Shown here piece after piece: positions 3,114 through 21,111 of a DNA stretch of 21,497 nucleotides. The stretch's first letter is position 1, and every line of letters begins with the position of its first letter. A model generated the notes under the pieces. That model ran no database searches. It was not told the origin of the DNA and was given only the letters and a program-made list of their open reading frames with translations. This DNA is from an uncultured bacterium. GTDB lineage: Bacteria; Lernaellota; Lernaellaia; JACKCT01. The position numbers were made by a program, and so were the translations under genes. The stretch spans positions 1-21,497 of the forward strand of contig CAZQAE010000078.1 in the NCBI GenBank assembly GCA_964591275.1. The letters are read 5' to 3'.

Positions 3114-3142
3114 TCGACAAACAGTCTTGTTTTTGATATTAT
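3114..3142 (+). promoter_or_regulatory. Sigma70-like promoter candidate for poly-Asp gene 1 (TCGACA-N17-TATTAT)
   Basis: TCGACA (3114-3119), a 17-nt spacer, then TATTAT (3137-3142). It lies 23 nt upstream of the GGAGGG RBS (3156-3161) and the ATG at 3165. Confidence 0.3.
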
Positions 3143-3164
3143 TTATTGAGAATTGGAGGGTGTC

Positions 3165-3809
3165 ATGGTCCATCTGAAATCACTGGTTTTTCTTTCCATC
3201 GTACTATTGCTGGCTCTGGGCGCTCTTCATTGCGACGATCCTGAAGTCGGCGATGATGATGACTCCTTTGTCGACGAGGACGACGACAATGATCTCAACG
3301 ACGATGTCGATGACGACATCGACGATGAGATCGACGATGATCTAAACGACGATATCGACGATGACCTCAATGACGACGCAGATGACGACGACATATGGGA
3401 CGACGATGTCGATGACGACGTGGATGATGACGCGGATGTGCTGGAGCCTCTTTGCCCCGCACTCCCATGGTCTGATGACACGGTGGAACTTCCCATCAGA
3501 TTGCAAAACGGTCCTGAACTGAGCGCATTTGGTTTCTCGGTGAGTTTCCCCAATTCGGCGATTAGTTATAGCGCTGTTCACAATGAAGCGCTTCTTCCGC
3601 CCAACAAAATTCGTTGCCAGGCCGAAGTCGCAAGACATGTCGTTTGCGTTGTCGATCCATTGCCGGCGCCATTAGCCGCCGGGACCAATGGTCTGATTGC
3701 GCGCATTGAATTCACTGTCAACGACAGTCCGGCCACCGCTTCGTTCCAGCTATATGACCTGTCCGGCGATTTGACGGAATACCCTAATTCCCAGTGCGAC
3801 AGTCAGTAG
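3165..3809 (+). CDS. Secreted or lipid-anchored poly-aspartate protein 1: signal peptide, Cys, a tract of about 68 aa that is more than 70% Asp, and a beta-rich C-terminal domain
   Basis: The ORF-track ORF is 3153-3809. The ATG at 3165 is preferred because of the GGAGGG RBS 4 nt upstream. The mature N-terminus is ...LLLALGALHC-DDPEVGDDDDSFVDEDDDNDLNDDVDDDIDDEIDDDLNDDIDDDLNDDADDDDIWDDDVDDDVDDDADV. The C-terminal roughly 125 aa may be a cohesin/Ig-like beta-sandwich (low confidence). Confidence 0.7.
   Translation: MVHLKSLVFLSIVLLLALGALHCDDPEVGDDDDSFVDEDDDNDLNDDVDDDIDDEIDDDLNDDIDDDLNDDADDDDIWDDDVDDDVDDDADVLEPLCPALPWSDDTVELPIRLQNGPELSAFGFSVSFPNSAISYSAVHNEALLPPNKIRCQAEVARHVVCVVDPLPAPLAAGTNGLIARIEFTVNDSPATASFQLYDLSGDLTEYPNSQCDSQ
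3234..3437 (+). repeat. Coding GAY-rich imperfect tandem repeat, including a 24-nt unit ATCGACGATGAYCTNAAYGACGAY repeated twice, that encodes the poly-Asp tract
   Basis: Direct reading of 3301-3430 shows repeated gacgat/gatgac units. The antisense strand yields spurious poly-Ser ORFs (3227-3553, 3342-3638). Confidence 0.8.
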
Positions 3810-3924
3810 TTTCGCCAAACCTGAGAAATAAGGATTGACGCTTCTCACACTTATAGGATCTCCCAGCACGTATCCCGCCGCAGATTTTGGATTGAAGGCA
3901 AGTGGCTACGGAGTGCTAAAGTAA

Positions 3925-5763
3925 TCAGGCTTTGTGAATTTTCCTGATTTCATCTCGGGCTTCGTCGCAATTGACGTTGAGTTCCAGCGATTTGATAAAA
4001 TACAATTCCGCGAAATCCACCTGGTTTTGAGCGGCGTTTATCTTGCCCAGAAACAAATAGGCCTGATATAGTTTCTGGTTAAAGTTCATTCCAGTCTTGA
4101 TGAGCTTTTCCGCCTCGCCGGCGCTTGATGCCCCCATAAGATTAAAGACGCACCAACCCTGGTAAACGTATGCTTCGGCGCATTCGGGATCTGCGGCGAT
4201 GGCTGCTTCCAATTGGGTTTTTGCTTCGGCAAAGTTCCCCTTGTCGATCAAGCGTTCGGCGGCTTGGACAAACGCCAAAGCGGAGTCCCCCGCTGCACCG
4301 ACGGCACCTGAAGGGATGTCCCCCGTTGAAGTCTCGGATTTCTCGTCCCCAAAATCCTCCATGCTCAAATCGGCTTTCGACTCGGATTCCTCGGGCGCAT
4401 CCTCCCCCCAAAGAGAATCCTCGGACACTTCCAGGCCGAGATCGTCGAGTTCCTGCAAGGCTTCTTCATCGGCGGTGCCGGATGTTTCGCTGTCCAGCTC
4501 AGCCTGCGCGCCATCGTCGGCGTCAAATTCTTCAAATTCAAATTCTGCTTCGTCCGGCACGGCCATTTCATCCCCGCTGCCCTTTTCGCTTTGCTTTTCA
4601 TCGGACAAAGATAAGGTTTGATCTTCCATCTCGAAAGCATCCGGTATGGACATCTGACCAAGAAGATCCGGCTTTTCCTTCGGAGATTCGGGCGCTGCTG
4701 GTTCGCTGGTGAGCGCTTCGGACGCTTGGGGCAGTGCGGACGCCGAAGCCTCCTCCTTTACGCTGGAAGCTATCGGCCTGACAAGAGGCTCAGACTCGGT
4801 CCTCATCGCCGCAGAGGGTTCCTCAATAGTTATTGACTCCCCTGATTTTTCAGATGCGACTCGTTTTTTCACCTCATCAACGCTCTTGAGCGCCTGGGCG
4901 ATAATGTCGTCTCCAATCGAAATTTCATAACCATCCTTCTTCACAGCAGCCTTCGCTTCGCGGTCCCGCTCCAGTTTTGTCTTTTGAGACACAGATTTTT
5001 CACCGCTTTTTTGAACACTTTCGGGAAAGCCGATGAAACCGAGTAGGAACATTCCATAAATGGTTTTATAGGCGACGCTCTTTTTCAGCTTGGTCAGAGC
5101 CACGATCTGGCGCAGAGTTCGGACGCCGTTAACGAGAGAATAAATTCTCGTGCCCGTCGGACCAAAGGCCAGGTCCTCTTCCCGATAAGGACAATCAGAT
5201 CTTTTGTGCAAAGGCGTCTCTTTGCGACCACGAAACTCTGCGGGAAGTTTTTGCAATGAGGCATAATCCCGAACACCAATATAAACCAGATTCGCGACAT
5301 CGATTTGCAATATTCTGTCTGCTTCCTCCACAATTTCACCGTCTTTAAAAAAGAAATCCCCTTCAGGCCACTCAAATACCTTGAAAAGCTTCAAGGTGAT
5401 ATGAGAATTGAGGGCCTCAAAAAGGGAGTGCGGCGTCAGATAACCTTTTTCCACAAGATAGGAACCTTGGCGACTGTCGCCCGCGCGCGTGTTTTTGAAC
5501 GAGATGTCGGCGATTTCCTGAGACACCTGCTTTTGCTGCACAAGGTATTCTCCCAGGCTATAGCCGGGGAAATGCGTGCTGGTCACGGCAGCAATTTTCC
5601 CTTGATTAAAATGAATGTGTATCTTTTTCGGACCCCTTGTCAAAGCGAGTATCCCCGTTTTCGATGACTGAAAAAGAATATTGAGGATTTTAGGAAAAGG
5701 AAGCTGCTGGAGCGAACCTTTAAGCGCATCGCGTTTAGGACGTTCAGTCATGGCTACCCACAT
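3925..5763 (-). CDS. DUF4388 (PatA-N-terminal-like) x2 protein with an acidic low-complexity central region and a C-terminal TPR
   Basis: LKGSLQQLPFPKILNILFQSSKTGILALTRGPKKIHIHFNQGKI matches the DUF4388 pattern (GdL..l.l.dlLq....ktG.L.......g.i.f..G.i). A second similar unit follows (TGTRIYSLVNG...). About 170 aa of D/E/S-rich sequence comes next. The C-terminus, KGNFAEAKTQLEAAIAADPECAEAYVYQGWCVF...YQAYLFLGKI, is TPR-like. The start is ambiguous (5763 or 5751) because neither has a Shine-Dalgarno sequence. Confidence 0.65.
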   Translation of the reverse strand: MWVAMTERPKRDALKGSLQQLPFPKILNILFQSSKTGILALTRGPKKIHIHFNQGKIAAVTSTHFPGYSLGEYLVQQKQVSQEIADISFKNTRAGDSRQGSYLVEKGYLTPHSLFEALNSHITLKLFKVFEWPEGDFFFKDGEIVEEADRILQIDVANLVYIGVRDYASLQKLPAEFRGRKETPLHKRSDCPYREEDLAFGPTGTRIYSLVNGVRTLRQIVALTKLKKSVAYKTIYGMFLLGFIGFPESVQKSGEKSVSQKTKLERDREAKAAVKKDGYEISIGDDIIAQALKSVDEVKKRVASEKSGESITIEEPSAAMRTESEPLVRPIASSVKEEASASALPQASEALTSEPAAPESPKEKPDLLGQMSIPDAFEMEDQTLSLSDEKQSEKGSGDEMAVPDEAEFEFEEFDADDGAQAELDSETSGTADEEALQELDDLGLEVSEDSLWGEDAPEESESKADLSMEDFGDEKSETSTGDIPSGAVGAAGDSALAFVQAAERLIDKGNFAEAKTQLEAAIAADPECAEAYVYQGWCVFNLMGASSAGEAEKLIKTGMNFNQKLYQAYLFLGKINAAQNQVDFAELYFIKSLELNVNCDEARDEIRKIHKA

Positions 5764-6101
5764 ATTTGAAAATGAGAATTATTTAAAACCCAAACCAAAT
5801 TTTATGTCGTGAAATAGGTCAATGTCAAGGGAGGATTAGGCCAAAATTGCCTGCCGGACAATTCCACGAAACGATCTCGTATTGTTAAATATTTGGCATA
5901 TTTCCCTCTTTTGTGAAATTTGCAATGCCTTAATCCGCACTTCGTTTTTGTAAGAGCAATTACGTAGTTTTATGACGTGGATCATGTTTTGTGACCATTC
6001 TAACATATATAAAGGGCGTGAGGATATCGGTTCGAGGTAAAAAATGGGAACCTCGAAAAAATGCGAAACATAAAAGGGAAGAAATTCAAAGGAGGCGCGC
6101 C

Positions 6102-6782
6102 ATGAAAATAGATGTTGATTTTTTTGATTCTGTTCAGCTTTTCAAAGGCCTTATTGGAAATGACGATCCGGAAATAGAATCGCTTATACAGCCTCTTTTC
6201 ATCAAGAAAAAGCAAGCTGCTTTCCGTCCCGGCGATCCATCGGATTCTATTTACGTCATCCGTTCAGGCCGCGTAAAAGTCGGAAAGACAACTGGGGATG
6301 GCCGTGAAATCATTCTCAATTTACTAAAAAAGGGAGATGTGTTCGGAGAAATGGCCTTCCTGGATGACGGGCCACGCGACACCTTCGCGGAAGGATTGGA
6401 GGACACGCAACTCTACGTCATCACCAGAGCGGGTCTTCTCAAGCTCATTAAGCGACGTCCCGCCATTACGTTTCGCTTGACGAAGATCATCGGCAAGCGT
6501 CGCAAGGAAGCGGAAAACAACATGGAAAGCCTACTCTACAAGGGCGTACGTGAACGCCTGGCTGGTTTACTGGTCCGCCTTTCCGAGGACTACGGCATAA
6601 ACGACAGCCGTGGGAGATTGCTTCGCATCAGGATCACGCATCAGGACCTGGCCAATCTCATTGGCTCAAGCCGTGAAACGGTCAGCCTGACCCTGGGCGA
6701 TTTTCGTCGGGAGGGGCATATCGACATCAATGACCGAAAAATCATCATCAGGAAAACGAACTCCCTGACCTCCGTGAATTAA
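6102..6782 (+). CDS. Crp/Fnr-family transcriptional regulator (cNMP-binding domain plus C-terminal HTH)
   Basis: The ORF-track ORF starts at 5991. AAAGGAGG (6089-6096) sits 5 nt before the ATG at 6102, so MKIDVDFFDSVQLFKGL is taken as the true N-terminus. The cNMP-binding motif is GDVFGEMAFLDDGPRDTFAEG. The HTH is ITHQDLANLIGSSRETVSLTLGDFRREG. Confidence 0.85.
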   Translation: MKIDVDFFDSVQLFKGLIGNDDPEIESLIQPLFIKKKQAAFRPGDPSDSIYVIRSGRVKVGKTTGDGREIILNLLKKGDVFGEMAFLDDGPRDTFAEGLEDTQLYVITRAGLLKLIKRRPAITFRLTKIIGKRRKEAENNMESLLYKGVRERLAGLLVRLSEDYGINDSRGRLLRIRITHQDLANLIGSSRETVSLTLGDFRREGHIDINDRKIIIRKTNSLTSVN

Positions 6783-6826
6783 ATCAACCGGGGTGTAAGA
6801 GCAGACAATCCTTTTGATCAGAAAAT

Positions 6827-6873
6827 CCCTTTTAAGGCGCCCAATGATTTGAGCGCCAAAAGGGTTTTTTATT
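6827..6873. terminator. Rho-independent terminator shared by the convergent crp-like and SPFH genes
   Basis: Hairpin CCCTTTT-aa-GGCGC-(loop caatgatttga)-GCGCC-AAAAGGG (6827-6864) followed by TTTTTTATT (6865-6873). The stop codon of the minus-strand SPFH gene (6869-6871) sits inside the T-run. Confidence 0.65.
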
Positions 6874-7669
6874 GTCCCAGGATGAGAGGAAGACCGTCTT
6901 TGCCCGCACCGACAACGACGACCTTGGCATTCGGACTTTGGGCGAGAGCCATTGTCGCCTCTATCCCCTTCCAGCGCAGAAGGTTTTCATTGATGCCGTC
7001 AGAAACGATGCGCTGAAAATCGGCGATGCCCTTGGCTTCCACAGTTTTGCGATCGGCTTCCAGCCTTTCCTTTTCCAATACGTATTTCATCTTCTCGGCT
7101 TCCTGCTTCATGGCCAGTTTGCGCTCGATAGCCTCCGTAACGGATTTCGGAAAATCCATATTACGCAGCATGATCGCTTCAATGACGACGCTTTTCCCTT
7201 TGAGTCTTTCATTCACGCTGTCGAAAATTTTCTTTTCGATCTCCGTGCGACGCAAATACGCCTCAATGCTTTGATAACTGGAGATCACGTCACGGGTTTG
7301 GTTGCGAATAACCGGTCGAATGAGAATTTCGTAATAGCCAGGTCCGATTTCCGAATGCAAAGTAGCAACTTTCCCCGCATCAGGTCGGAATCGAATTGAC
7401 AGGTCGGTGCTAATATTGAGCTGATCCTGGGTCAGGATGGAAAGCTTTTCCTGCTGATCCTTGATCCTCACATCGTAGATGTACATCCTGTTCCAGGGCG
7501 CAATCCAGTGCCACCCCTCGCCGTAGATCGTCGTCACGTCCGTTCCCGCGCGCCAGTTAAAATACACTCCCCGTCCCCCGGACGGCACGGTTGTGCCGCA
7601 GCCGGTCATGAACGAAACCAAGGTGATCAAAACGATAAGCATTGCTGCTTTTCTGATTGCCTGTGCCAT
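6869..7669 (-). CDS. SPFH/band-7 (prohibitin/HflC-like) domain lipoprotein
   Basis: The ORF-track ORF is 6869-7729. The ATG at 7669 has an AAGGAG RBS, giving MAQAIRKAAMLIVLITLVSFMTGC (signal peptide with a lipobox-like MTGC). The body has SPFH-like segments (SILTQDQLNISTDLSIRFR..., EAIMLRNMDFPKSVTEAIERK...) and an Ala/Glu/Lys-rich coiled-coil tail. Confidence 0.75.
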   Translation of the reverse strand: MAQAIRKAAMLIVLITLVSFMTGCGTTVPSGGRGVYFNWRAGTDVTTIYGEGWHWIAPWNRMYIYDVRIKDQQEKLSILTQDQLNISTDLSIRFRPDAGKVATLHSEIGPGYYEILIRPVIRNQTRDVISSYQSIEAYLRRTEIEKKIFDSVNERLKGKSVVIEAIMLRNMDFPKSVTEAIERKLAMKQEAEKMKYVLEKERLEADRKTVEAKGIADFQRIVSDGINENLLRWKGIEATMALAQSPNAKVVVVGAGKDGLPLILGQ

Positions 7670-7772
7670 GGCTGTCTCCTTATGGCGATTTATTCTCGCA
7701 CGGATTTTTTTGCTGCTCATATAACTCAATGAAAAGATGAGTCACCCCTTCTTGAACACAAGAAACAATTTC

Positions 7773-7801
7773 TTGCAAGTTTTCTGCAAAAGCCGGATAA
7801 T
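7773..7801 (+). promoter_or_regulatory. Sigma70-like promoter candidate for poly-Asp gene 2 (TTGCAA-N17-GATAAT)
   Basis: TTGCAA at 7773-7778, a 17-nt spacer, then GATAAT at 7796-7801. It lies about 27 nt upstream of the ATG at 7829. Confidence 0.4.
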
Positions 7802-7828
7802 GCCTTTTAGAAATATTTGGAGGTTATT

Positions 7829-8395
7829 ATGTCGGTTTATAAACTTCTCGTGCTTTTGACTCTTGCCTTTGTCGCGCTGGCGTGCTGCCTGAATTGCGGC
7901 GACGATGACGACGACAACGATGATGCCTTTTCACCGTATGACGATGATGACGATGTGAACGATGATTCGGATGACGATGACGACGCAGACGATGATATCG
8001 ACGATGATATCGACGACGATGACGTGGACGACGACGTCGATGATGACGACGACGACCAGGACGATCCCTCGTTGGAAAGTTTTGAAAACTCACTGTGCTT
8101 GAATCTGAAAGCAAACGAGCCGCAAAGCATTGACTTCGATTATTCCGACGATGTTCTGACAGTCATCCACCGCAACGGCGTTTTCAACTGCTGCCTGGAT
8201 TATGTCGATGTGGAAATGGTAATTTCAGAAATGACCATCACGCTCAATGAAAACGAATATGCGCCGGAGCCATGCAACTGCGTGTGCCCGACCGACGTCA
8301 CCTCCCGGATTTCAGGATTGGCGGCGGGTAATTACACGATTGACATTTTCGCCAACGGCAATTTAGCGATCAGCGGCGAAACAGTCATTCCCTAG
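7829..8395 (+). CDS. Secreted or lipid-anchored poly-aspartate protein 2: signal peptide, Cys, an Asp tract of about 55 aa, and a Cys-containing beta-rich C-terminal domain
   Basis: The ORF-track ORF is 7817-8395. The ATG at 7829 is preferred because of the GGAGG RBS at 7819-7823. Sequence reads MSVYKLLVLLTLAFVALACCLNCG-DDDDDNDDAFSPYDDDDDVNDDSDDDDDADDDIDDDIDDDDVDDDVDDDDDDQDDP, followed by a 105-aa C-terminal domain. The acidic tract is encoded at 7901-8065. The antisense ORFs 7827-8114 and 7837-8130 are artefacts. Confidence 0.7.
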   Translation: MSVYKLLVLLTLAFVALACCLNCGDDDDDNDDAFSPYDDDDDVNDDSDDDDDADDDIDDDIDDDDVDDDVDDDDDDQDDPSLESFENSLCLNLKANEPQSIDFDYSDDVLTVIHRNGVFNCCLDYVDVEMVISEMTITLNENEYAPEPCNCVCPTDVTSRISGLAAGNYTIDIFANGNLAISGETVIP

Positions 8396-8416
8396 TTGGG
8401 AATGCGAAATTCCGCA

Positions 8417-8734
8417 TTAGGAACAAGTCGCGACGCAGTCCAGCAATACCTGGCAGTCTGTCTCGAAGGCATGATCGCAATCCCATGCGCATCCCCAGTC
8501 GAAACCCGTTCCGTCGTTGCAGGCGATCAACATCTCGTCCCTATACGTTTCGTTGAGGGTGCCGCCGCAGATATCGTAAACATCGCCAATGATATAGGCG
8601 CATTCAGTTGGCCCCACGTCATCGTCGCCATCATCGTCGTCGTCATCGTCATCGCCGCAGGCGAAACACAGACTCAAAATGACGCCAAGGGCGATTAGAA
8701 GCGCGATTGTCATCGGAAACTTGAAGCTTTTCAT
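8417..8734 (-). CDS. Secreted or lipid-anchored poly-aspartate protein 3: signal peptide, Cys-Gly, an Asp tract of 12 aa, and a 66-aa domain with 8 Cys
   Basis: The ORF-track ORF is 8417-8845. The ATG at 8734 is preferred because of GGAG 9 nt upstream on the minus strand. Sequence reads MKSFKFPMTIALLIALGVILSLCFACG-DDDDDDDDGDDD-VGPTECAYIIGDVYDICGGTLNETYRDEMLIACNDGTGFDWGCAWDCDHAFETDCQVLLDCVATCS. The acidic tract is encoded at 8618-8653 by the reverse complement of a gtcatcgtcgtc repeat. Confidence 0.65.
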   Translation of the reverse strand: MKSFKFPMTIALLIALGVILSLCFACGDDDDDDDDGDDDVGPTECAYIIGDVYDICGGTLNETYRDEMLIACNDGTGFDWGCAWDCDHAFETDCQVLLDCVATCS

Positions 8735-8919
8735 AATAATGACTCCATGGATGATTGACTGTTTGATCAGCACTTTAAAGATTGATTCTCTCGGGCAAAT
8801 TGTCAAGAGAGGAAAGAATGCATTGAAGGTTGAAAAAATCCCCATGCTTCAGATGCCCTTGCAAATTGGACGAAGATAAATGAATTAATGAGTATCGAGG
8901 TATTGACGGCATCTTAAAA

Positions 8920-10999: not shown

Positions 11000-12115
11000 T
11001 CACAAATTCTCTAGTAGAGCGACACACACCTTTTCGATATCGTCTTCACTGAGAAATTCATGACAGGGCAAACCTATTGCGCATTTATCCCAGCGGCGCG
11101 AGTTGGGAACCTGCTCGTCAGATACGGCACATTGTTTCTTATAATAATCCAGCGAGCTGATCGAACGGGCGGGAACGTTGCACTCTATGCCAGCCTGCCT
11201 CATGGCCGCGATAATCTTTGCTCGCTTCGCGCCCCCCGTCAGAGCTATGAAAAAAGTCTGATGATTCCATATAGTATCTGGCGATGCTTGTGGAAGGAAA
11301 TAAGCGTCGTGGGGACGCAGGCGCTCTCTATACTTAGCGCCGACCCTGACGCGAGCCGCAATGATGCTTTCAATCCGTTCCATTTGCTCAAGACCCACGG
11401 CGCTGGAAATCTCCGGCAGTCGATAGTTCATTCCGGGAAATAACAGGCGTTTGTCGGATACCGAAAAACCGTGCTCGCCATAAGCCCGAACGAATTCCGC
11501 CAGCTTTTCATCATTGGTGAGCACGGCGCCGCCCTCCCCCGTTGTCACGATCTTCCGGGGATGAAAACTCAAGATCGCGGCCAGGCCGGAGCATCCCAGC
11601 GGCTCGCCGTCCGTCATCGTCCCCAGGGCGCAGGCGGAATCCTCCGCCAGAACGGCGTTAATTTCTTTTGCCCATCGCTGAAGGGAGGCAAAATCACAGG
11701 GCAACCCAAATTGATGCACCGCTATGACGAAATCCGGCTTTTTGGTCGCGGCCCAATCCAGTGAATTTTGTGGAATGGAAAAATTATCGTTGTTCACATC
11801 GAGAAAAATCGGCATGGCCCCGAGCACTTCGACCGCACCGGCGGTTGCCGCGAATCCGTAATCGGGTAACGCAACCTTATGTCCCGGTCCGACGCCCAGT
11901 CCCCGCAACATGGCCAAAAGGGCCGATGTTCCCGAGTTTGTCGTCACCGCATAAGAAACCTGGAAATATTCACACAGCGCCCTTTCAAATTTTTCGCGAT
12001 AAACGCCTTGCGTGAGTCGTCCGCTTTGGAGGATGTCGCGAATCGCCGGAAGGCTCGCAACGCTTGAAGAGGGTGACGCCAAACGGATTTTGGGTTCAGG
12101 TTCGGCCATGTTCAC
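11000..12115 (-). CDS. DegT/DnrJ/EryC1/StrS-family PLP-dependent sugar aminotransferase (ArnB-like)
   Basis: Family-typical segments are YAVTTNSGTSALLAMLRGLGVGPGHKVALPDYGFAATAGAVEVLGAMPIFLDV and SFHPRKIVTTGEGGAVLTND, the latter carrying the Lys motif. The start overlaps the upstream epimerase stop by 20 nt. Confidence 0.85.
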   Translation of the reverse strand: MNMAEPEPKIRLASPSSSVASLPAIRDILQSGRLTQGVYREKFERALCEYFQVSYAVTTNSGTSALLAMLRGLGVGPGHKVALPDYGFAATAGAVEVLGAMPIFLDVNNDNFSIPQNSLDWAATKKPDFVIAVHQFGLPCDFASLQRWAKEINAVLAEDSACALGTMTDGEPLGCSGLAAILSFHPRKIVTTGEGGAVLTNDEKLAEFVRAYGEHGFSVSDKRLLFPGMNYRLPEISSAVGLEQMERIESIIAARVRVGAKYRERLRPHDAYFLPQASPDTIWNHQTFFIALTGGAKRAKIIAAMRQAGIECNVPARSISSLDYYKKQCAVSDEQVPNSRRWDKCAIGLPCHEFLSEDDIEKVCVALLENL

Positions 12116-13052
12116 GATACCAGTCCGCCGTTATTTTCAAGCCCGCTTCAAGGTCGATCTTCGCCGAAAAACCCAGAAGCTTTTTGGCTTTGGCGATGTC
12201 GGGTGTCCGCAATAAAATATCCGTGCCGAAATGAGCTTTATGCGTGATCCGGGATTCGCTGTCGGTCGCGACGACGATCAACTCCGCCAGCCGCCGCGCG
12301 GTCACCGCGCCGGTCGCATCGCCAATGTTGATAATCTCATCTCCGACGCCTTCTTGCCTGATCGCAGCCATTGTCGCCGCAATAAAATCATCGACAAAAC
12401 ACCAAGCGCGAACCTGCTCCCCGTCGCCGTAAACCACAATGTCCTCGCCCGCTAGCGCCGCGAGCGTCATATCGCGCACTGCTCCATTTCCCGACTGCCC
12501 CGGTCCGTAGATGTTAAAGGGCCGAAGGCAAACCACCTCCAAGCCCTTTTGCGCGCCCGCCGTCAAGCACAGTTTTTCTCCGGCAATTTTCGACACTGCG
12601 TATGTCCATCGAGGCTCTTTCATATCATCGACGGTCAGCGGCTGATCCTCGTGAGCATTGCCGGCATTTGTCCCGTAAACTTCGCTGGACGAAATGAAAA
12701 TAAGCCGCCGCGTCTTTTCCGTCAGCAACTCGAGGAGATTCATGGCTCCACCGATGTTGACGCGCAACACATCGTATGGCGCTTTATAATAATTCAGCAC
12801 ACCGGCAATCGCCGCCATATGCACGACAATATCGGCGTCGCGCGCAAGCTCCGTCAGCGGCGACCGGCCCAGCACATCGCCCTGGACCAATTCGATCCCG
12901 CTTTGCTTTGCGCGGTTCAGATCGCCGATCGGTTTCCGACGCAGATTGTCCAGCAGGCACACGTCATAGTCCGCGGCAGCCGCCAGCGCGAGGTTCAGGC
13001 CCAAAAAGCCTGCACCGCCCGTAATCAGTATTCTCGATTTTTTCATGGCCAT
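12096..13052 (-). CDS. NAD-dependent epimerase/dehydratase (extended SDR; UDP-sugar 4,6-dehydratase or UDP-glucuronate decarboxylase-like)
   Basis: N-terminal Rossmann motif ILITGGAGFLGLNL and catalytic YAVSKIAGE (Y-x3-K). At 318 aa it is the size of the UXS/ArnA C-terminal domain. Confidence 0.85.
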   Translation of the reverse strand: MAMKKSRILITGGAGFLGLNLALAAAADYDVCLLDNLRRKPIGDLNRAKQSGIELVQGDVLGRSPLTELARDADIVVHMAAIAGVLNYYKAPYDVLRVNIGGAMNLLELLTEKTRRLIFISSSEVYGTNAGNAHEDQPLTVDDMKEPRWTYAVSKIAGEKLCLTAGAQKGLEVVCLRPFNIYGPGQSGNGAVRDMTLAALAGEDIVVYGDGEQVRAWCFVDDFIAATMAAIRQEGVGDEIINIGDATGAVTARRLAELIVVATDSESRITHKAHFGTDILLRTPDIAKAKKLLGFSAKIDLEAGLKITADWYREHGRT

Positions 13053-13147: not shown

Positions 13148-14566
13148 GTGCTATCTTTCGCGGCGATGAAAAGCACCTCGTCAAACAACGGCCGCCGTTT
13201 CCTCCTCGTTCATCCGGGCGGGCCGCGCCGCGATCTCTTCGACCGCCTGGGACGATCCGACTCGCCGCCCCTGGGCATTCTCTACCTGGCTTCATCTTTG
13301 GAAGCTGCGGGGCATGAGGTCCGCGTTGTCGACTTGAATTTTCCGCGCCATGTAGACAGCATCAAACCTCTTTTGCAAAAATGGAGGCCGCACATCGTCG
13401 GCCTCGGCACACTCGCGCCGTCGTTTCAAGACGTCATGGGCCACGCGCGATCCATACGCAAGCAGTTGCCGAACGACGTTCTCCTCATCGCCGGCGGCCC
13501 AGACGCCACCGCGCGAACCGAATTGTACACGCAGGCGGATATCTTTGACGCCGTGCTTTTCGGCGAAGCGGAAAAGAGCATTGTGCGCCTTGCCGACAGC
13601 TATCCCACTATCCCCCAAGGCGAGGGGATTATTCCCTGCGGCCAAAGCGCCGGGGCCATCCCTGAGCCTTTGGATTCCGATTCCCTGCCTTTCCCCGCCC
13701 GCCATCTGTTGCCCTTGAAAAGATACCGGGGCGGTCCTGCCTACAAGCGGCGTCGATACTCTACAAGCATTTTCACGCACCGTGGCTGCGCCTACAATTG
13801 CTCTTTTTGCGAAAAAAGCGTTCACCACGGAGCGATGCGCTTTCGCTCAGCCGCCAGCATCCATGAAGAAATCCGCCGCATCCGAAGGGATCACGGAATC
13901 CACGACATTCGTTTCGTGGACGACGTGCTGATGATCAGCAAACGCATCCTCGGCGAACTGATCGATCTGATTCGTTATGACGCCGACCCCTTCGACTGGA
14001 TGTGCTGCGGCCGCATCGACCTGATGGATGAAAAAATGCTGGCCGAAATGAAAAAGGCCGGGTGTTACCGTATCGAGATTGGCATCGAAAGCGGCTCGGC
14101 CCGCGTACTGGATTTGGTAAAAAAGGGAACGGCCCCCGGACAGGCCCTGGAGGCCATGCGCAAGGCGCGTGTCGCCGGTATTGAAGTCATCGCCAATTTT
14201 ATCATCGGCTTTCCAACCGAAACCGGAGAGGAAATGGCGCAAACGGTGGACCTGTCGCTCAAAACCGATCCCGACTACGCCGTGTATTTCCTCTTCACTC
14301 CTTTTTCCGACGCACCCATCTCGAAGGATTTCAACCTGGGTTGGGATGACTTCGCGCCGGGATACCGCGCCCCTTCTCCCGATTACCTTGTGCCCTCCGA
14401 CCAAGCGCAGGACATGGTGGACAGCGCCCTGCGTCGTTTTTATTTCCGCCCAGGCTATATCCTCAGGCGCCTTGTCGCCATCCGCAATCCCTGGATTATC
14501 GCCGATCTGGCAGCATGCGCCGGATTATTTTTGTACCGACGGATTAAAAATATCATTTGTTCATGA
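13148..14566 (+). CDS. B12-binding-domain radical SAM enzyme (class B; probable methyltransferase-type)
   Basis: An N-terminal cobalamin-binding Rossmann-like region (FLLVHPG...LGILYLASSLEAAGHEVRVVDLNF...VLLIAGGPDA) precedes a radical SAM core with RGCAYNCSFCE (C-x3-C-x2-C). The start is either the GTG at 13148 (as in the ORF track) or the ATG at 13166. Neither has a clear Shine-Dalgarno sequence. Antisense ORFs 13292-13828 and 13847-14404 are rejected. Confidence 0.8.
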   Translation: MLSFAAMKSTSSNNGRRFLLVHPGGPRRDLFDRLGRSDSPPLGILYLASSLEAAGHEVRVVDLNFPRHVDSIKPLLQKWRPHIVGLGTLAPSFQDVMGHARSIRKQLPNDVLLIAGGPDATARTELYTQADIFDAVLFGEAEKSIVRLADSYPTIPQGEGIIPCGQSAGAIPEPLDSDSLPFPARHLLPLKRYRGGPAYKRRRYSTSIFTHRGCAYNCSFCEKSVHHGAMRFRSAASIHEEIRRIRRDHGIHDIRFVDDVLMISKRILGELIDLIRYDADPFDWMCCGRIDLMDEKMLAEMKKAGCYRIEIGIESGSARVLDLVKKGTAPGQALEAMRKARVAGIEVIANFIIGFPTETGEEMAQTVDLSLKTDPDYAVYFLFTPFSDAPISKDFNLGWDDFAPGYRAPSPDYLVPSDQAQDMVDSALRRFYFRPGYILRRLVAIRNPWIIADLAACAGLFLYRRIKNIICS

Positions 14567-15593: not shown

Positions 15594-16496
15594 TCATTCG
15601 TAATAGCGCGGCTCGACCTTCCTGCGCCCTGCGGTGCGTTGATATTTTTCTTTGGATTTCCCAATAACAATCACCGCGTAAATCTTTTCTCCTTTTTCGA
15701 GACCAAGGTTTTTTCTAATTCCCTTGTCGTTCTTGATCGCTTCAACAGCAAACCCGATCAGACAGGTTCCCAGACCAGCCGCGTGGGCGGCCAGTAAAAT
15801 ATTTTGCGTCGCCAGCAACGCATCTTCGCAAGGAGTAGCGCTTCCTGTTTTAGCTCCTACTAAAATAGCCGCCGGGGCTTGATGAAACAGCATATCTTTT
15901 CCATCAACATCATAGTCATGCAACGCCTGCTCAACAAATTCATAATAGTCGCGATAATATTTGCCAAGCACGTCCTTCGCAAACAACCGCGATAGGAATC
16001 GAACCGACCTTTTCGATGCAAGGTTGTTGAGTTTGCGGAAGAAACCCGAAATTTTAGATCCCAGTTTTTCCACCGCCTGCGCAGTCGGCAAAATGGTAAA
16101 AGTCCATTGTTGCGTGTTGGAACCGGAGGGGGCAGTCATTCCCGCTTTCACCAGATCCTTGAGTAAATCACGCTCGACCGATTCGTCGGAAAATTTTCTG
16201 CATGAACGCCGCGAACTCATGAGATTTACGAGCGACGCGGCGTCAAACTTACCCGGTTTTAACCAAGTTTTGTCCACATTGAGGGTTTCAAATTTCAAGC
16301 CATCCGCATCAATAAAGGAAATGTCTATAGCCTTTTGGGGACATGACGCCGCGCAATGCCCGCAACCGATGCATAGCGTGGAATCGCCGACCGCTAATTC
16401 ATCGGCCATCGACATAATCTCCCTGGGGCAGACCGGAATACACAATCCACATCCGTTGCACAGGTCCCGGTCGATCTTTATTTTTATTGGTTCCAA
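15594..16496 (-). CDS. 2x[4Fe-4S] ferredoxin-domain / nitroreductase-family fusion protein
   Basis: The N-terminus carries CNGCGLCIPVCP and CIGCGHCAASCP (two CxxCxxCxxxCP clusters). The C-terminal roughly 200 aa is nitroreductase-like (RRSCRKFSDESVERDLLKDLVKAGMTAPSGSNTQQWTF...). The start is an apparent TTG at 16496, because the first Fe-S motif begins at residue 13 and no in-frame ATG lies upstream. Confidence 0.8.
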   Translation of the reverse strand: MEPIKIKIDRDLCNGCGLCIPVCPREIMSMADELAVGDSTLCIGCGHCAASCPQKAIDISFIDADGLKFETLNVDKTWLKPGKFDAASLVNLMSSRRSCRKFSDESVERDLLKDLVKAGMTAPSGSNTQQWTFTILPTAQAVEKLGSKISGFFRKLNNLASKRSVRFLSRLFAKDVLGKYYRDYYEFVEQALHDYDVDGKDMLFHQAPAAILVGAKTGSATPCEDALLATQNILLAAHAAGLGTCLIGFAVEAIKNDKGIRKNLGLEKGEKIYAVIVIGKSKEKYQRTAGRRKVEPRYYE

Positions 16497-16743
16497 AGTC
16501 TTTCCATCCTCATTTTCAAAGTAATTTCAAAAAATCATGGGTTTCTAGCGTGAAACACTACCATAAAAATGAATGCTGCAAAAAAATGGGGGAAACGAGA
16601 TGTTTTTTCAAAACTCGCCAGTTCCATCCCAAAACTGCGATGGGACTCCTTTGGTTCCCCGACCCAGAGTGAGCAATTTTTTGTGAGGTCAAGGGAATAA
16701 GCGCTGCTCTTTCGGCATTGGGATAGCTGCCTATGGACTGTCG

Positions 16744-17802
16744 CTACAGCTTGATATTTGGATGTTTGTCGTAAGGCATCGGTAATACATCCGCGCCATG
16801 CAATGGATCGGCGTATGTCTTAATAAATTCCTTGTCCTCCGACGCATGGCACATGCCCTTCCCTTTTTGCAGGGCGTCCCAATTCGACATGCGGTGGTGG
16901 ATGGACTCAATCGAATCCGTTTTCACATTTCCAAAAGATATCTGGATGAAGGGACACGGCGTCACATCCCCGTAGCAGGTTACGTAAATTTCCGTTGTCC
17001 CGCAGGGGCAGCGAAAATCCTCGCTTCCCAGGTTTCCGTGGAGAAACACATCCGAATCCTCGGCCAACTCATCGAGAATCTTTCGATGCCGCGCCTCCAG
17101 TAACACTTCACGGTTGGCGCTCCATCCACCGGCGGAAGACGGGAAAACCAATCCCAACGTCGCATCGTGCTCCTTGGCCAATTTCAAAACCCTGCCCACG
17201 TTCCCCGCCTCCACCTGGCTGACCGTGGTTGTGAAGCACAAATGTCCACGAACGCCGGGAGTTTCGCGAATGACTTTAAGCGCAGCGAAAACTTTTTCGT
17301 AGAGTCCGGGGATGCCACGCAGTTCGTCATGCTCTTTTGGGACCGGCGAATCGAGGCTGATCTTGAAAAGGTCCGCGCCGGCCTTGCGTAGCGACATGAT
17401 GCGCTCGGAATCGAGCAAGGCCCCGTTCGTATTGATGCCGATAAATGTTTGACGCGGGTGAAAAAAGCTAATGATCTTCTCAAGATTCTTATCGATGAGC
17501 GGCTCGCCGCCGGTGAAATTGACTTCATAAACGCCCATGCGATAGCAGTCATCGCCCAGGCGGCGCAGTTCAACGCTATCCAAACGGCTTCGTGAATTGT
17601 CGATCATTTTCAGCGATGAACATTTCGCACAAGCCGCCTGACAGTCGTACAAAACAGCGTATTCGAGAGCGCTCACCATCGGGTGGCCCCGCACTTTCGA
17701 CAGCGCCAGATTGCGCAGCCCGTTCACGGCAAACAGGGGCTTTTTGACAAGGAACATTCCGAATTTTGGAATGCGCCTGAGTATGTCGATAGGTCGTTTC
17801 AT
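16744..17802 (-). CDS. Radical SAM enzyme with a C-terminal Cys-rich SPASM/twitch-like extension
   Basis: ATG at 17802 with GAGAGAGG about 8 nt upstream. The motifs are YDCQAACAKCS (C-x3-C-x2-C), FTGGEPL, and a C-terminal cluster CPCGTTEIYVTCYGDVTPCP...C. This is typical of rSAM peptide or cofactor maturases, but no substrate gene was identified. Confidence 0.8.
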   Translation of the reverse strand: MKRPIDILRRIPKFGMFLVKKPLFAVNGLRNLALSKVRGHPMVSALEYAVLYDCQAACAKCSSLKMIDNSRSRLDSVELRRLGDDCYRMGVYEVNFTGGEPLIDKNLEKIISFFHPRQTFIGINTNGALLDSERIMSLRKAGADLFKISLDSPVPKEHDELRGIPGLYEKVFAALKVIRETPGVRGHLCFTTTVSQVEAGNVGRVLKLAKEHDATLGLVFPSSAGGWSANREVLLEARHRKILDELAEDSDVFLHGNLGSEDFRCPCGTTEIYVTCYGDVTPCPFIQISFGNVKTDSIESIHHRMSNWDALQKGKGMCHASEDKEFIKTYADPLHGADVLPMPYDKHPNIKL

Positions 17803-18070: not shown

Positions 18071-20323
18071 ATGGATTTCATTTCTGTAAAAATTCCGGCG
18101 CGGTCATTAAACCACTTGTCGCTTCTTAGAAACGCTCGAACCTATTTTTGCTGCTTTATGGCGCTTTTCTGCCTTGGCTTATATCTGGCGGCGACTTCTC
18201 CGCTAATTTATTGGCGCGATTCCGTCGAGTTCGCCATGATCGGCCACAACCTGGACATCGGGCATCCGGCCGGCAGTCCGGTCTTTTCCATGTTCACCAA
18301 ATTCCTTGATTTACTGCCCATCGGCTCCATCGCTTTTCGGGCAACATTATTTTCCATGCTCAGTGCGTTTTTCGCCATATCAGCCCTGGTTTTTACACTT
18401 TTCAGACTGGCTGAATCCTTTAGACATACTGGTTGGAGATTGTGTTTCGGCGCTCTTGTCGCTGTCTGCGCTTTCGCCTTTTCTCCAGCTTTTTTCGATT
18501 GGGCCATTGCGCCCGAAGTGTACGCCGCGCAAGTTCTGGTCGTTTTCCTCCTTATTGCAATGTCGATTGAGTTATTCATCCAGGAGCGTCACGGCGGAGC
18601 CGACAGGCGACTTCTCTTTCTCGCCGGTTTGATTCTGGGATTGGGATGCGGCGTGCACATGGGGACGGGGCTGCTCGCGCCGGGGCTAGCCTGGGTTCTC
18701 ATCATGCCGAATCGATCCCTGCGGCGATTACGAAGCATTTCCCTTTTCGGCCTTTTTGTTTTCATCGGCTTTAGCGTTTACATCTATCTGCCGATCCGGG
18801 CCGCAACGCAGCCGACATTCAACCAGGGCAATCCGCAAACGTGGGGTTTGTTCCTGGGGCACATCACCGGCAGTCGCTATTCGGAAATCATCCACAGCTT
18901 CCCGTGGCCGCGCATCCTGCTCAATCTCCGCGCCCTGGCCGCGCATTTCCCCGACCAGCTCACATGGCCCACGCTGCCTCTGGCTGTCTTCGGCTTAATG
19001 TTTTGCGCCAGGCGAAGTCCGCATTTTCTCATCGGTATCTGTCTATTCGTTTTTGGACATCTCTACCTGTACGTGAAGGATTGGGAAAGAGCCTTCGGCT
19101 ATATCCCGCTATTCGCCCTGGCCGCTGTGCTGACGGGCGTCGGCGCTGTCGCCGCCTCTCATTTCCTTTCGGGCAAAAAGCGATATTTCAGCCCCTGGAT
19201 AGGAATTTCCGCGTGCCTGATCTTTGCATTCATGCTTTTTGTTCACCAGGCTCAGAGAGCTATCCTTGAACGTTCCCACAGCGCGCACGACCTGACACAT
19301 CGCCACGCACGCGGCCTCCTCAATTCATTGCCACACGATGCGCTTTACGTCAGTCATCAGGACGCCAACAGTTATACGATCTTCTACGCGCAATCCGTCG
19401 AACGATATCGGGAGGATGTGGTCCACATCCAACGTGCTTTTCTCCCGCTGCCGGATTATCTGCGTGAACGTTATTCATCCATCGACTGGAGCGGTTACGA
19501 TCCGCAAAAAAGGTTCGGCGTTTACGACTTCTTGGTCGACCAAAGCAAAGTGCAAGAAGCATTCTGGGACTATGGGTGGGAAATGCGCGCCGATGTTCCA
19601 GTCGATGGCCTGGCAACGCACGGTTTCATCTGGCGGATCGCCCAAGACAATTCTTTCAAACCTGATCCGGATCGACGGAGATTAAAGAAATATTTCGGGC
19701 AGGTCATCGCGGAGATGGATTTTCATCCTTACGACTTCACCGTCCGCGAAGTCTATGCCAGGCGCTTTTCGCTATTGGCCAAATATATGTATGACCATCG
19801 CGAGTATGAGCAGGCGGAAAGCGCCATCAACCGGGCGCTTGAAATCCGCCCCCAATACGGCCAGTTATACGCGCAGCTCGGCATCATTGAGGCTGCCAGG
19901 GGAATGCTCGATCAGGCATGGCTAAACGGCGTCCTGGCCACGCAACTCGAACCCGGCCATATCGACAATTGGAACTACCGCGCGCAGTTTGCGATTCGGG
20001 ATAAGAAACCAGACGACGCCCTGTTTGCTTACGAAAAATCACTGGCGCTCAACCGCTGGCAAAGCGGCCCCGCGTTGGGTCTCGCGGAATTTTTGGTGAA
20101 TAAAAAACAATATGCCAAGGCCGCATCGCGAGCCAAAGACGCCCTCGACTGCGCGAAAAACGAACGCGACGAGCATCGAGCCAATAACGTTTTTGCGCGG
20201 GCGCTTGTCGGCCTGGGCCAATGCGCTGACGCCCTCCCGATTATCACAAAACTTAAGGAAATGAATCCTGGCGACGAGACGACGCAAGGGATGCTTGATT
20301 TTTGCCGGGGACAATTGAAATAG
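18071..20323 (+). CDS. DUF2723 (TMEM260-like) GT-C-fold membrane glycosyltransferase with a C-terminal TPR domain
   Basis: The first-loop motif YWRDSVEFAMIGHNLDIGHPAGSPVF matches the DUF2723 signature as I recall it (D-[SG]-x-E-F......G-[IV]-x-H-P-x-G-x-P). About 11 TM segments span residues 1-390. The C-terminal roughly 200 aa is TPR-like (YEQAESAINRALEIRPQYGQLYAQLGIIEA...). The stop at 20321-20323 overlaps or abuts the GT2 gene. Confidence 0.75.
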   Translation: MDFISVKIPARSLNHLSLLRNARTYFCCFMALFCLGLYLAATSPLIYWRDSVEFAMIGHNLDIGHPAGSPVFSMFTKFLDLLPIGSIAFRATLFSMLSAFFAISALVFTLFRLAESFRHTGWRLCFGALVAVCAFAFSPAFFDWAIAPEVYAAQVLVVFLLIAMSIELFIQERHGGADRRLLFLAGLILGLGCGVHMGTGLLAPGLAWVLIMPNRSLRRLRSISLFGLFVFIGFSVYIYLPIRAATQPTFNQGNPQTWGLFLGHITGSRYSEIIHSFPWPRILLNLRALAAHFPDQLTWPTLPLAVFGLMFCARRSPHFLIGICLFVFGHLYLYVKDWERAFGYIPLFALAAVLTGVGAVAASHFLSGKKRYFSPWIGISACLIFAFMLFVHQAQRAILERSHSAHDLTHRHARGLLNSLPHDALYVSHQDANSYTIFYAQSVERYREDVVHIQRAFLPLPDYLRERYSSIDWSGYDPQKRFGVYDFLVDQSKVQEAFWDYGWEMRADVPVDGLATHGFIWRIAQDNSFKPDPDRRRLKKYFGQVIAEMDFHPYDFTVREVYARRFSLLAKYMYDHREYEQAESAINRALEIRPQYGQLYAQLGIIEAARGMLDQAWLNGVLATQLEPGHIDNWNYRAQFAIRDKKPDDALFAYEKSLALNRWQSGPALGLAEFLVNKKQYAKAASRAKDALDCAKNERDEHRANNVFARALVGLGQCADALPIITKLKEMNPGDETTQGMLDFCRGQLK

Positions 20324-21111
20324 ATTTATGGGAGCATTTGAACTTGACCAACGACTCTAAGAAAATTTTATCGACATATGACCTGTCCATCGTCATTCCC
20401 GTTTACAACGAGAGCTGGCGAATCGATGAGGGCCTGCGTGCAATCATGAAGTATCTGAATGCGCGGACGGACAAATGCCAGATCGTTGTCGTGGATGACG
20501 GCAGCGGCGACGACACCGTGGAAAAGGCGCGAAAAATTTTAAAGGCATTTCCTGATCACCTGGTCATTGAGTCCGAAATCAATCGTGGCAAGGGACACGC
20601 CGTAAAAATCGGCATGCTAGCCGCCGGAGGCGCCGTCCGGCTTTTCACGGACATCGACCTGTCCGTGCCCATTGAAACAGCCGATCATTTCGCCCGGCTT
20701 ATTTTCGACGGCGCTGATATCGTCATCGGAACGCGCAAGGTCAAGGGCAGCGACGTGCGTGTCCATCAACCTTGGTGGCGAGAGATGCCCGGCGGAGTAT
20801 TCCGCTGGATGTCAAAATGCCTTTGCGCGCCGACCATCACGGATTTCACCTGTGGCTTCAAAGCCTTTTCCGCTCCAGCCACGCGCGCCATCTTCGAGCA
20901 AAGCGTCATCGACCGTTGGTCATTCGACGCAGAGATTCTTTTCCTCGCCTACCAACTGCGCCTGCTCATCGTGCAGATCCCCGTCGTATGGGTTAACTCG
21001 GAGGACAGCCGCGTGAGCATCGGCATAGACATGATCCGAAGCTTCCTGGAACTGATGATCATTCCCATCATGGGAGTGCGCGGACAGTATAAATTGAGGT
21101 CTGGAATTTAG
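20302..21111 (+). CDS. GT2-family polyprenyl-phosphate sugar transferase (Dpm1/ArnC/GtrB-like)
   Basis: LSIVIPVYNE, QIVVVDDGSGDDT, TDIDLSVP (DxD-type) and TDFTCGFKAF are hallmarks of Dpm1-like GT2 enzymes. The ORF track gives a TTG at 20302, which overlaps the upstream gene by 22 nt. The true start may instead be the TTG at 20338 or 20344, downstream of the GGAG at 20330-20333. There is no in-frame ATG before the catalytic motifs. Confidence 0.8.
   Translation: MPGTIEIDLWEHLNLTNDSKKILSTYDLSIVIPVYNESWRIDEGLRAIMKYLNARTDKCQIVVVDDGSGDDTVEKARKILKAFPDHLVIESEINRGKGHAVKIGMLAAGGAVRLFTDIDLSVPIETADHFARLIFDGADIVIGTRKVKGSDVRVHQPWWREMPGGVFRWMSKCLCAPTITDFTCGFKAFSAPATRAIFEQSVIDRWSFDAEILFLAYQLRLLIVQIPVVWVNSEDSRVSIGIDMIRSFLELMIIPIMGVRGQYKLRSGI

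Follow-up and report, generated by a model that had tools for sequence, protein, structure and literature searches.

Three genes with a shared N-terminal plan

The stretch of DNA analysed here, hereafter the window, comprises 21,497 nucleotides (nt) of contig CAZQAE010000078.1 (assembly GCA_964591275.1) from an uncultured bacterium of the lineage Lernaellota, and carries three genes, termed A, B and C, in which a signal peptide and a Cys are followed by a tract rich in Asp. Inspection of the open reading frames (ORFs) located A at 3165-3809 on the plus strand (214 amino acids, aa), B at 7829-8395 on the plus strand (188 aa) and C at 8417-8734 on the minus strand (105 aa), exactly as an initial annotation of this DNA had proposed, and all three products share the order signal peptide, Cys, Asp-rich tract and Cys-containing domain. 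Several further claims of that annotation were borne out: the tracts measure exactly 68, 55 and 12 residues, a hydrophobic signal peptide with a Cys precedes each of them, and the C-terminal parts contain 4, 6 and 8 Cys, respectively. The hydrophobic regions (h-regions) of the three signal peptides reach mean Kyte-Doolittle values of 2.95-3.29 over 12 residues, and Lys or Arg is found within the first eight residues of each protein.

In A, the signal peptide MVHLKSLVFLSIVLLLALGALH ends with Cys23 in the non-canonical 'ALHC' (3165-3233, +; mean hydrophobicity 3.29) and is followed by a 68-aa tract with 42 Asp and 3 Glu, free of Lys, Arg and His and with a DDDx quasi-period (3234-3437, +), and then by a putative divergent cohesin-like domain of 122 aa with four Cys (3438-3809 including the stop codon, +). 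The signal peptide of B contains, by a PROSITE-like rule, the canonical lipobox VALAC (Cys19) and continues with C-L-N-C-G (7829-7900, +); its tract comprises 55 aa, of which 40 are Asp and none is Lys, Arg or His (7901-8065, +), and its predicted beta-sandwich domain of 109 aa bears six Cys and the motif H-x-N-x-x-F-N-C-C ... C-x-C-x-C (8066-8395 including the stop codon, +). In C, the signal peptide MKSFKFPMTIALLIALGVILSLCFA has a near-canonical lipobox and is followed by Cys26-Gly27 (8654-8734, -), a tract of 12 aa with 11 Asp (8618-8653, -) and a 66-aa, eight-Cys domain modelled as four helices (8417-8617 including the stop codon, -).

Asp accounts for 62% of the tract in A, 73% in B and 92% in C, Glu occurs three times in A and not in B or C, and in the main unit one or two other residues come behind three Asp. 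The description 'near-pure aspartate with single-residue interruptions' therefore holds for C only; the non-acidic interruptions are PEVG, SFV, LN and IW in A and AFSPY in B. Against a background of 5.8% Asp, the binomial tail probability of the Asp content is 3e-34 for A, 2e-42 for B and 3e-13 for C, and values from 1e-13 to 1e-42 exclude chance as the source of the Asp richness. The window genes other than A, B and C contain just 5.8% Asp and 5.3% Glu, on which ground a generally acidic proteome of the 'halophile type' was rejected.

Direct reading of the sequence places a GGAGG ribosome-binding site ahead of A (3155-3159, +) and of B (7819-7823, +), 5-6 nt from the ATG, and for these two genes the annotated GGAGG-type sites stand; C has GGAG (8743-8746, -), 8 nt from its ATG. 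Gene callers start C at an upstream ATG at 8845 (8735-8845, -), giving a product of 142 aa. This extension is weakly conserved in a relative, where the protein is called from the Met of MKSFKF, and GGAG precedes the ATG at 8734, so the longer call is probably wrong. The sigma70-like promoters that had been rated credible turned out to be ordinary consensus matches, namely TCGACA-17-TATTAT with a TG extension 5' of A (3114-3142, +; 10/12 matches, judged by consensus only), TTGCAA-17-GATAAT 5' of B (7773-7801, +; 9/12 matches) and a site about 220 nt upstream of C; the region holds 14 such matches, versus 6.3 ± 2.5 in shuffles.

The Asp tracts are read as protein and change length in frame

B and C recur with 100% DNA identity in a separately assembled second sample, and JGI as well as Logan assemblies contain orthologs. 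For all three genes, orthologs (A', B' and C') were found on a syntenic JGI contig of 100 kb from a close relative (L003), and one neighbouring membrane protein falls into the same 90%-identity cluster in the window and in L003. Pairwise alignment with L003 revealed that the signal peptides and C-terminal domains of A, B and C are conserved; in A, Leu4 through Cys23 is identical. Within the tracts, the two contigs differ by indels whose lengths are all multiples of three (A, 3 and 6 nt; B, 12 and 33 nt; C, 117 nt), the C tract having 12 residues in the window versus 51 in the ortholog. The additional part of C' is composed of 6.2 copies of a 12-nt unit (91% identity) encoding DDDA, tandem-repeat periods of 12, 24, 36 and 48 nt were found in A, and 12/24/48-nt periodicity was found in A and B. 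In-frame indels between conserved flanks indicate that the tract length changes by gain and loss of repeats while Asp is maintained.

The Asp codons GAC and GAT are used at about 1:1, as in the rest of the window, and runs of the same codon do not exceed three; this mixture with short runs shows that Asp is kept at the protein level rather than as a DNA repeat. In the comparison with L003, aligned tract codons are substituted at a rate no higher than the remainder of the genes. Signal peptide, tract and conserved domain lie in one frame with a ribosome-binding site upstream in all three genes, and the opposite-strand ORFs for poly-Ser (3227-3553 and 7837-8130) are mirror images of the repeat. 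As judged from these genomic comparisons, the tracts are translated, and Asp is what the true frame encodes; the assembly or frameshift artefact that the initial annotation had itself considered is contradicted by the identity of B and C in the second assembly and by the in-frame indels. The segment SPYDDDDD occurs within the tract of B (7931-7954) and within that of C' (L003:6286-6720) and is absent from C of the window, which hints at an exchange of tract segments between neighbouring genes.

Signal peptides and lipoboxes

Lipoboxes were assessed with a PROSITE PS51257-type rule ([LIVMFWSTAG]2-[LIVMFYSTAGCQ]-[AGS]-C, Cys at position 15-35, h-region of 7-22 residues). B meets the rule at Cys19 (VALAC) and not at Cys23, the residue marked in the initial annotation; C (LCFAC) fails the strict rule through its Cys at -3 and passes a relaxed one; A (GALHC), with His at -1, fails every rule tested. 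N-terminal lipidation, as proposed earlier, is thus plausible for these proteins, B being canonical and C near-canonical (CFAC), and the ALHC junction of A is where the proposal falls short. A second Cys lies 1-3 residues ahead of 'CG' in 15 of 60 junctions from the related loci described below, giving a recurrent C-x(1-3)-C-G-D(n) junction (VALAC-CLN-CG in B, 7883-7900; ALACGCG in L030; also L044, L080, L101, L011, L086, L093 and L114), and such a pair could possibly form a disulfide or bind metal.

The attached domains are three unrelated cargos

A, B and C had been described as paralogous. The three mature domains were concatenated into one query and searched against 1.84 billion representative proteins, and the three segments drew separate matches: a beta-sandwich family, which supplied almost all of them (669), cohesin proteins, and a tiny Cys-rich family. 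Since each query segment recruited its own set, and with models that show only beta structure for B but four helices for C, the three proteins are not paralogs; their C-terminal domains are mutually unrelated and only the N-terminal cassette is common to them. Pfam and NCBIfam gave no matches to full-length A, B and C, and word-indexed homologue searches with the A domain, the B domain and a C-family profile returned only self or near-orthologs.

The domain of A matched two proteins of 1,200-1,300 residues (P0113, phmmer E 9.8e-11; P0138, phmmer E 5.2e-10) over segments that are Pfam Cohesin repeats, and its comparison with cohesin by hhalign gave a probability of 96.9% (E 1.6e-10); on these two grounds we assign it as a divergent, single cohesin-like module. 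A direct Pfam search with A found no family at E <= 0.1, cohesin PF00963 included, and metagenome scans with the single sequence or with the alignment of A and A' found no relatives, so that two sequences are known. PDB sequence searches with A and with the B profile gave no meaningful match. The B-type beta-sandwich (8066-8392 in the window; P0011-P0157), with its 669 representative homologues, is frequently found in tandem, and P0024 exemplifies its occasional pairing with a dockerin (PF00404). Neither a Pfam model nor a closely similar solved structure exists for this domain, which makes it a candidate new family. The domain of C was modelled by AF2 (pLDDT 85) as a four-helix bundle with eight Cys, for which a fold search in the PDB found no match at E <= 0.001; its family is very small (P0078, with 55% identity, P0158 and P0159), and one member is named 'hypothetical protein' at NCBI. 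The even Cys counts of the cargo domains (4, 6 and 8) would fit an oxidising, extracytoplasmic location.

Distribution of the cassette

A fourth gene with the cassette is located immediately beyond the window on this 25.5-kb contig (k141_479683; L001:848-1357), and its product combines the canonical lipobox LAGVSC with a tract some 60 residues long and a domain containing eight Cys; most relatives likewise meet the lipobox rule, and in sister proteins of the contig and of related MAGs the canonical lipobox mostly runs on into CGD(n). A fifth is present in L003 between nitroreductase and radical-SAM genes. When one genome per GTDB species was scanned for Cys-Gly-Asp7 (CGD7), at least 113 loci were found across many phyla, with about 0.002 expected by chance, which at the database level contradicts the earlier statement that no bacterial protein family that could be named has such a tract. 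In 70 of the 117 matches listed, the CGD7 Cys is precisely the end of a lipobox-type signal peptide, and many of the remaining matches listed show lipobox variants or a twin-arginine translocation (TAT) signal plus lipobox; Bacteroidales and Muribaculaceae are among the matches listed. In Chloroflexota, Actinomycetota, Lachnospiraceae and Bacteroidales, a short Asp run (7-12 residues) gives way to linkers of other kinds. The long DDDx tracts, with 26-117 residues and joined to small Cys-rich domains or enzymes, are concentrated in a few metagenome-assembled genomes (MAGs); these MAGs are labelled FEN-1099 or FEN (Ca. Lernaellota; JAOSJX01 and JACKCT01) or are unclassified 'bacterium' MAGs (DAIMDW01, DAINPV01, CAZPJD01, CAXXWT01 and CAYSHR01).

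Across loci from the FEN-1099-labelled and unclassified MAGs, 59 of 66 distinct Asp-rich ORFs carry the Asp-rich segment directly after a signal peptide, and a Cys lies within six residues of the tract in 57 of 60 junctions. Lys plus Arg make up less than 1% of the non-Asp residues in the related tracts, and 217 Asp runs are exactly three long. The domains attached in related loci include BNR/sialidase-like, S41 peptidase, arylsulfotransferase, Ntn-hydrolase-like, Lcl_C, cohesin-like, beta-sandwich and Cys-rich types. Synteny with the window was found for one JAOSJX01 locus (L030), which shares a DUF4388 protein (61% identical) and a Crp regulator (71% identical) and has a poly-Asp lipoprotein of 296 aa adjoining this pair; the FEN-1099 / Ca. 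Lernaellota lineage is therefore the most likely origin of the window. On the contig of the window, which was chosen independently of CGD7, the tract is found on three of five lipoproteins predicted by regular expression and, in addition, on A, and is lacking from the SPFH protein (CGTTVPSGG) and a TPR lipoprotein; it seems, on this sequence survey, to mark a subset of lipoproteins.

Genomic neighbourhood

An envelope-associated module of these genes with SPFH, GT-C and DUF4388 proteins had been suggested. This did not hold up: the flanking genes (DUF4388-TPR, Crp, SPFH and a 689-aa membrane protein) alternate in strand and have their own starts, and other genes are inserted in the relative. 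L003 carries a PF05635 23S rRNA intervening-sequence protein between B' and C' (L003:5835-6224), a 976-aa TPR protein after C' (L003:6833-9763) and, in the nitroreductase/radical-SAM interval, an extra 178-aa poly-Asp lipoprotein with 16 Cys (L003:17727-18263). All three are absent from the matching positions of the window (8396-8416, 8846-8919 and 16497-16743), which suggests that such genes turn over rapidly. The FEN-1099 MAG shares only the DUF4388-Crp pair with the window. Given the insertions in L003 and the synteny of this pair alone in L030, a conserved operon with SPFH, GT-C and DUF4388 was rejected, as was a link to the radical-SAM genes, which lie 4.4 and 8.0 kb away and for which we found no supporting evidence.

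The DUF4388/PatA_N-TPR protein (3925-5763, -) has a long middle region rich in Glu, Asp and Ser and a sub-threshold match to the MshE-like cyclic-di-GMP-binding motif NF053729 (21.5 bits versus a cutoff of 38); its gene is paired with that of a divergently transcribed Crp-family regulator (5991-6782), and this pairing is conserved in L030. A TMEM260-like GT-C protein with C-terminal TPRs (18071-20323, +) overlaps a family-2 glycosyltransferase gene (20302-21111, +) by 22 nt, a layout of polyprenol-phosphate-sugar synthase plus GT-C transferase as in Ppm/Pmt protein O-mannosylation, and DegT aminotransferase and epimerase genes (11000-13052) are located near this pair. The window also encodes a B12-binding radical-SAM enzyme (13148-14566, +), a ferredoxin-nitroreductase fusion and a radical-SAM/SPASM enzyme (15594-16496, - and 16744-17802, -); the radical-SAM/nitroreductase cluster includes an EamA transporter, and its matches to named families fall far under the cut-offs.

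A proposed lipoprotein sorting determinant with a polyanionic spacer

We consider it probable that A, B and C are unrelated extracytoplasmic proteins carried on a lineage-typical N-terminal cassette that acts both as a sorting determinant and as a disordered polyanionic spacer. This reading builds on what was observed above: the protein architecture and its reading frame, tracts that vary in length and sit directly behind the signal peptide, diverse cargos, and enrichment in one lineage. The cassette would consist of a Sec signal peptide, a presumably lipid-modified Cys and the acidic DDDx tract. The lipoprotein sorting determinant would lie in the residues directly behind the Cys (with the Cys, C-D-D for A and C-G-D-D for both B and C), and the remaining tract would be an intrinsically disordered, self-repelling polyanion holding a small, disulfide-stabilised binding domain off the membrane, with a length that would drift fast through in-frame duplication and loss of 12-nt units. 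We infer lipidation, a sorting role, disorder with extension, and an envelope location for A, B and C. The net charge of the tracts is -0.66 to -0.92 per residue, and at 0.36 nm per residue their contour lengths come to about 24 nm (A), 20 nm (B) and 4 nm (C).

In E. coli, Asp at position +2 together with Asp, Glu or Gln at +3 retains lipoproteins in the inner membrane. The Lol-avoidance motifs of Pseudomonas are GGG and GDD, surface lipoproteins of Acinetobacter baumannii that depend on type II secretion (T2SS) and GspN carry a Gly/Ser-rich (GGG) or Asn/Asp-rich (ND(N/D)) motif, and a mixed Gly/Asp motif is found on putative T2SS lipoproteins in two further species examined (PMC12802150). CS(D/E)2 is a signal for surface export and for packing into outer membrane vesicles (OMVs) in Bacteroides (PMC6222051). 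C-D-D of A and C-G-D-D of B and C match the Lol-avoidance definitions, a sequence match only. The alternative raised in the initial annotation, an exaggerated acidic export or sorting signal, is reasonable, as CDD and CGDD equal reported Lol-avoidance, T2SS or lipoprotein export signal (LES) motifs, and the presence of the tract on only a subset of the contig's lipoproteins fits a sorting tag. As for the spacer, correct trafficking of E. coli lipoproteins requires that the sorting residues be followed by a long enough disordered linker, whose sequence is replaceable, and an artificial Gly-Ser (GS) linker can stand in for the natural one (bioRxiv 10.1101/2021.01.05.425367). Replaceable, length-dependent linkers fit the free variation of tract length found here. 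The tether idea of the initial annotation fits as well, with signal peptide and domains kept while the tract length shifts by in-frame indels.

Several points weigh against this interpretation. A sorting motif needs 2-5 residues, which leaves tracts of 50-120 residues and the preference for Asp unexplained. A could be cut by signal peptidase I, for instance after ALGA, and B offers three N-terminal Cys as candidates for lipidation, of which Cys19, unlike Cys23, fits a lipobox. In addition, the MAG loci were picked by the CGD7 pattern, so that the dominance of 'CG' and the estimates of gene density are biased.

Translation of such tracts calls for comment. In E. coli, Asp/Glu-rich stretches near the N-terminus destabilise the ribosome unless about 30 bulky residues of the nascent chain fill the tunnel. 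The tracts start at residue 24-28, right behind the bulky signal peptide, which by analogy may occupy the tunnel and make the tract translatable; a Mg2+-dependent effect on expression is speculation. A much bolder form of the proposal, which we regard as unlikely, would make poly-Asp a phylum-wide address and anchor in Ca. Lernaellota and allies, labelling a broad class of lipoproteins for an undescribed retention or surface-export route and forming a proteinaceous, polyanionic, teichoic-acid- or capsule-like brush that buffers divalent cations, its synthesis possibly coupled to Mg2+ via ribosome destabilisation.

Alternative explanations

Among the alternatives to a sorting determinant with spacer, the tract might mainly be a high-capacity, low-affinity binder of divalent cations or mineral (Ca2+, Mg2+, Fe), forming a proteinaceous, polyanionic layer of the envelope, akin to teichoic acids, poly-gamma-glutamate or the poly-Asp proteins of eukaryotes, in which spacing is secondary. 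The 40-45 carboxylates per tract in A and B without a basic residue, the regular DDDx unit kept across many proteins and MAGs and the strong preference for Asp over Glu (42 versus 3 in A; no Glu in B and C) would suit such a binder, as would the high gene density (four on the 25-kb contig, and about one extra per 10 kb in related loci, the latter being CGD7-biased), and cation binding is compatible with a tether. However, Pfam and NCBIfam revealed no TSP3, EF-hand or RTX match, and the DDDx unit lacks Gly/Asn positions and DxDxDG-type spacing. A four-fold length difference between near-identical orthologs is easier to accommodate in a spacer than in a tuned site, and unrelated phyla commonly have short Asp runs, of 7-12 residues, that start behind a lipobox Cys and continue into non-acidic linkers. 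We therefore hold cation binding as the main function to be improbable.

Comparably improbable is a neutral origin, by which the Asp runs would be a tolerated slippage product of GAY-rich 12-nt units and any disordered linker would do. The tandem 12/24/48-nt repeats, whose units are quickly gained and lost between close relatives, are what slippage would leave; other lineages place A/T/Q-rich, DGDTT or GD-repeat linkers after the CGD start, and a GS linker can substitute for a natural one in E. coli. Yet the mixed use of GAC and GAT with short same-codon runs argues for maintenance of Asp at the protein level, Lys and Arg are almost wholly excluded, and the tract is placed only after a signal peptide and Cys, on a subset of lipoproteins. 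The known translation cost of N-proximal Asp runs in E. coli also makes their persistence suggestive of a benefit.

A third possibility is a transient acidic pro-region that aids Sec export, or keeps the Cys-rich domain unfolded and soluble up to disulfide formation, and is then removed, so that a soluble domain would remain in the periplasm or be secreted. A has no proper lipobox, negative charge behind a signal peptide is compatible with export, and every attached small domain is Cys-rich. Nevertheless, no processing site is conserved between tract and domain (the junctions DADVLEPLC, QDDPSLES and DDDVGPTEC differ), most relatives have canonical lipoboxes, the tract is also attached to large enzymes, and its extreme length variation speaks against a specific chaperone role; a cleaved pro-region is therefore possible for A and unlikely in general. 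Finally, we give practically no credence to the tracts being assembly or frameshift artefacts, or to the opposite-strand poly-Ser frame being the real one, since low-complexity DNA, although it misassembles easily and here produces mirror ORFs, would hardly yield identical B and C in a second assembly, orthologs in JGI and Logan assemblies, a single frame from signal peptide to domain behind a ribosome-binding site, and indels that are all multiples of three.

Significance and comparison with known systems

The sorting rules of lipoproteins are known for few cultured phyla. Here, a large part of the lipoproteins exported by an uncultured phylum seems to bear an extreme and readily recognised tag; those tagged include peptidases, enzymes of sialidase-like and sulfotransferase-like type, and small binding modules. 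Should this tag govern localisation, it would offer a sequence-only predictor of the surface or periplasmic proteome and a pointer to new sorting machinery; should it act mainly as a polyanionic spacer, it would be a natural, genetically encoded polyelectrolyte brush whose length is tuned through repeat slippage. In either case, long N-proximal Asp runs, which are risky for translation in E. coli, are routinely tolerated elsewhere.

Long, Asp-dominated segments of cation-binding-type composition after a signal peptide are also found in eukaryotic poly-Asp proteins, such as aspein and the acidic tail of calsequestrin. There is no homology to these proteins, the biological context is another, and nothing found here indicates storage of mineral or Ca2+. 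With its cohesin (PF00963) module on a long linker from the envelope, A resembles the anchoring scaffoldins of cellulosomes; unlike these, it has a single module without a direct Pfam match, a presumed lipid and poly-Asp in place of an SLH or sortase anchor and a Pro/Thr linker, and no dockerin partner identified in the lineage.

The closest parallels lie in acidic sorting signals and lipoprotein linkers. Like the LES of Bacteroidota (CS(D/E)2, K-(D/E)2), the tract places a negative cluster after Cys+1 on a subset of lipoproteins, which in the case of the LES includes hydrolases that need external polymers (PMC6222051). The LES is short, Bacteroidota-specific and tied to surface flipping and OMV packing (PMC6222051); in A, B and C the acidic residues are present, yet the host is nearest FEN-1099 / Ca. 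Lernaellota and not Bacteroidota, which sets these proteins outside the LES class. With the Lol-avoidance and T2SS motifs the same residues are shared, A starting with C-D-D and both B and C with C-G-D-D; those signals span 2-4 residues (within an enriched stretch of at most about 7 behind the Cys) and were defined by experiment in Proteobacteria, whereas here tens of acidic residues occur in an unrelated phylum and the likeness is a sequence match only (PMC12802150).

As in the linkers of RcsF, Pal and NlpD, a low-complexity segment separates the Cys, here presumably lipidated, and the sorting residues, here putative, from the globular domain (bioRxiv 10.1101/2021.01.05.425367). Length and disorder outweigh sequence in those linkers, in keeping with the varying tract lengths found here. 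The E. coli linkers have about 20-50 residues of mixed composition, whereas the tracts are 62-92% Asp, reach about 120 residues in relatives and follow a DDDx pattern, and poly-Asp is, unlike the E. coli linkers, apparently present on a large share of the lineage's lipoproteins. Our literature search found no account of lipoprotein tethers made of poly-Asp or rich in aspartate, and the publication in which Ca. Lernaellota was named is silent on them. Disordered lipoprotein linkers and acidic sorting signals behind the Cys were thus known already; what appears to be new is their extreme form, 50-120 residues of quasi-periodic poly-Asp attached to many unrelated cargos in one poorly known phylum.

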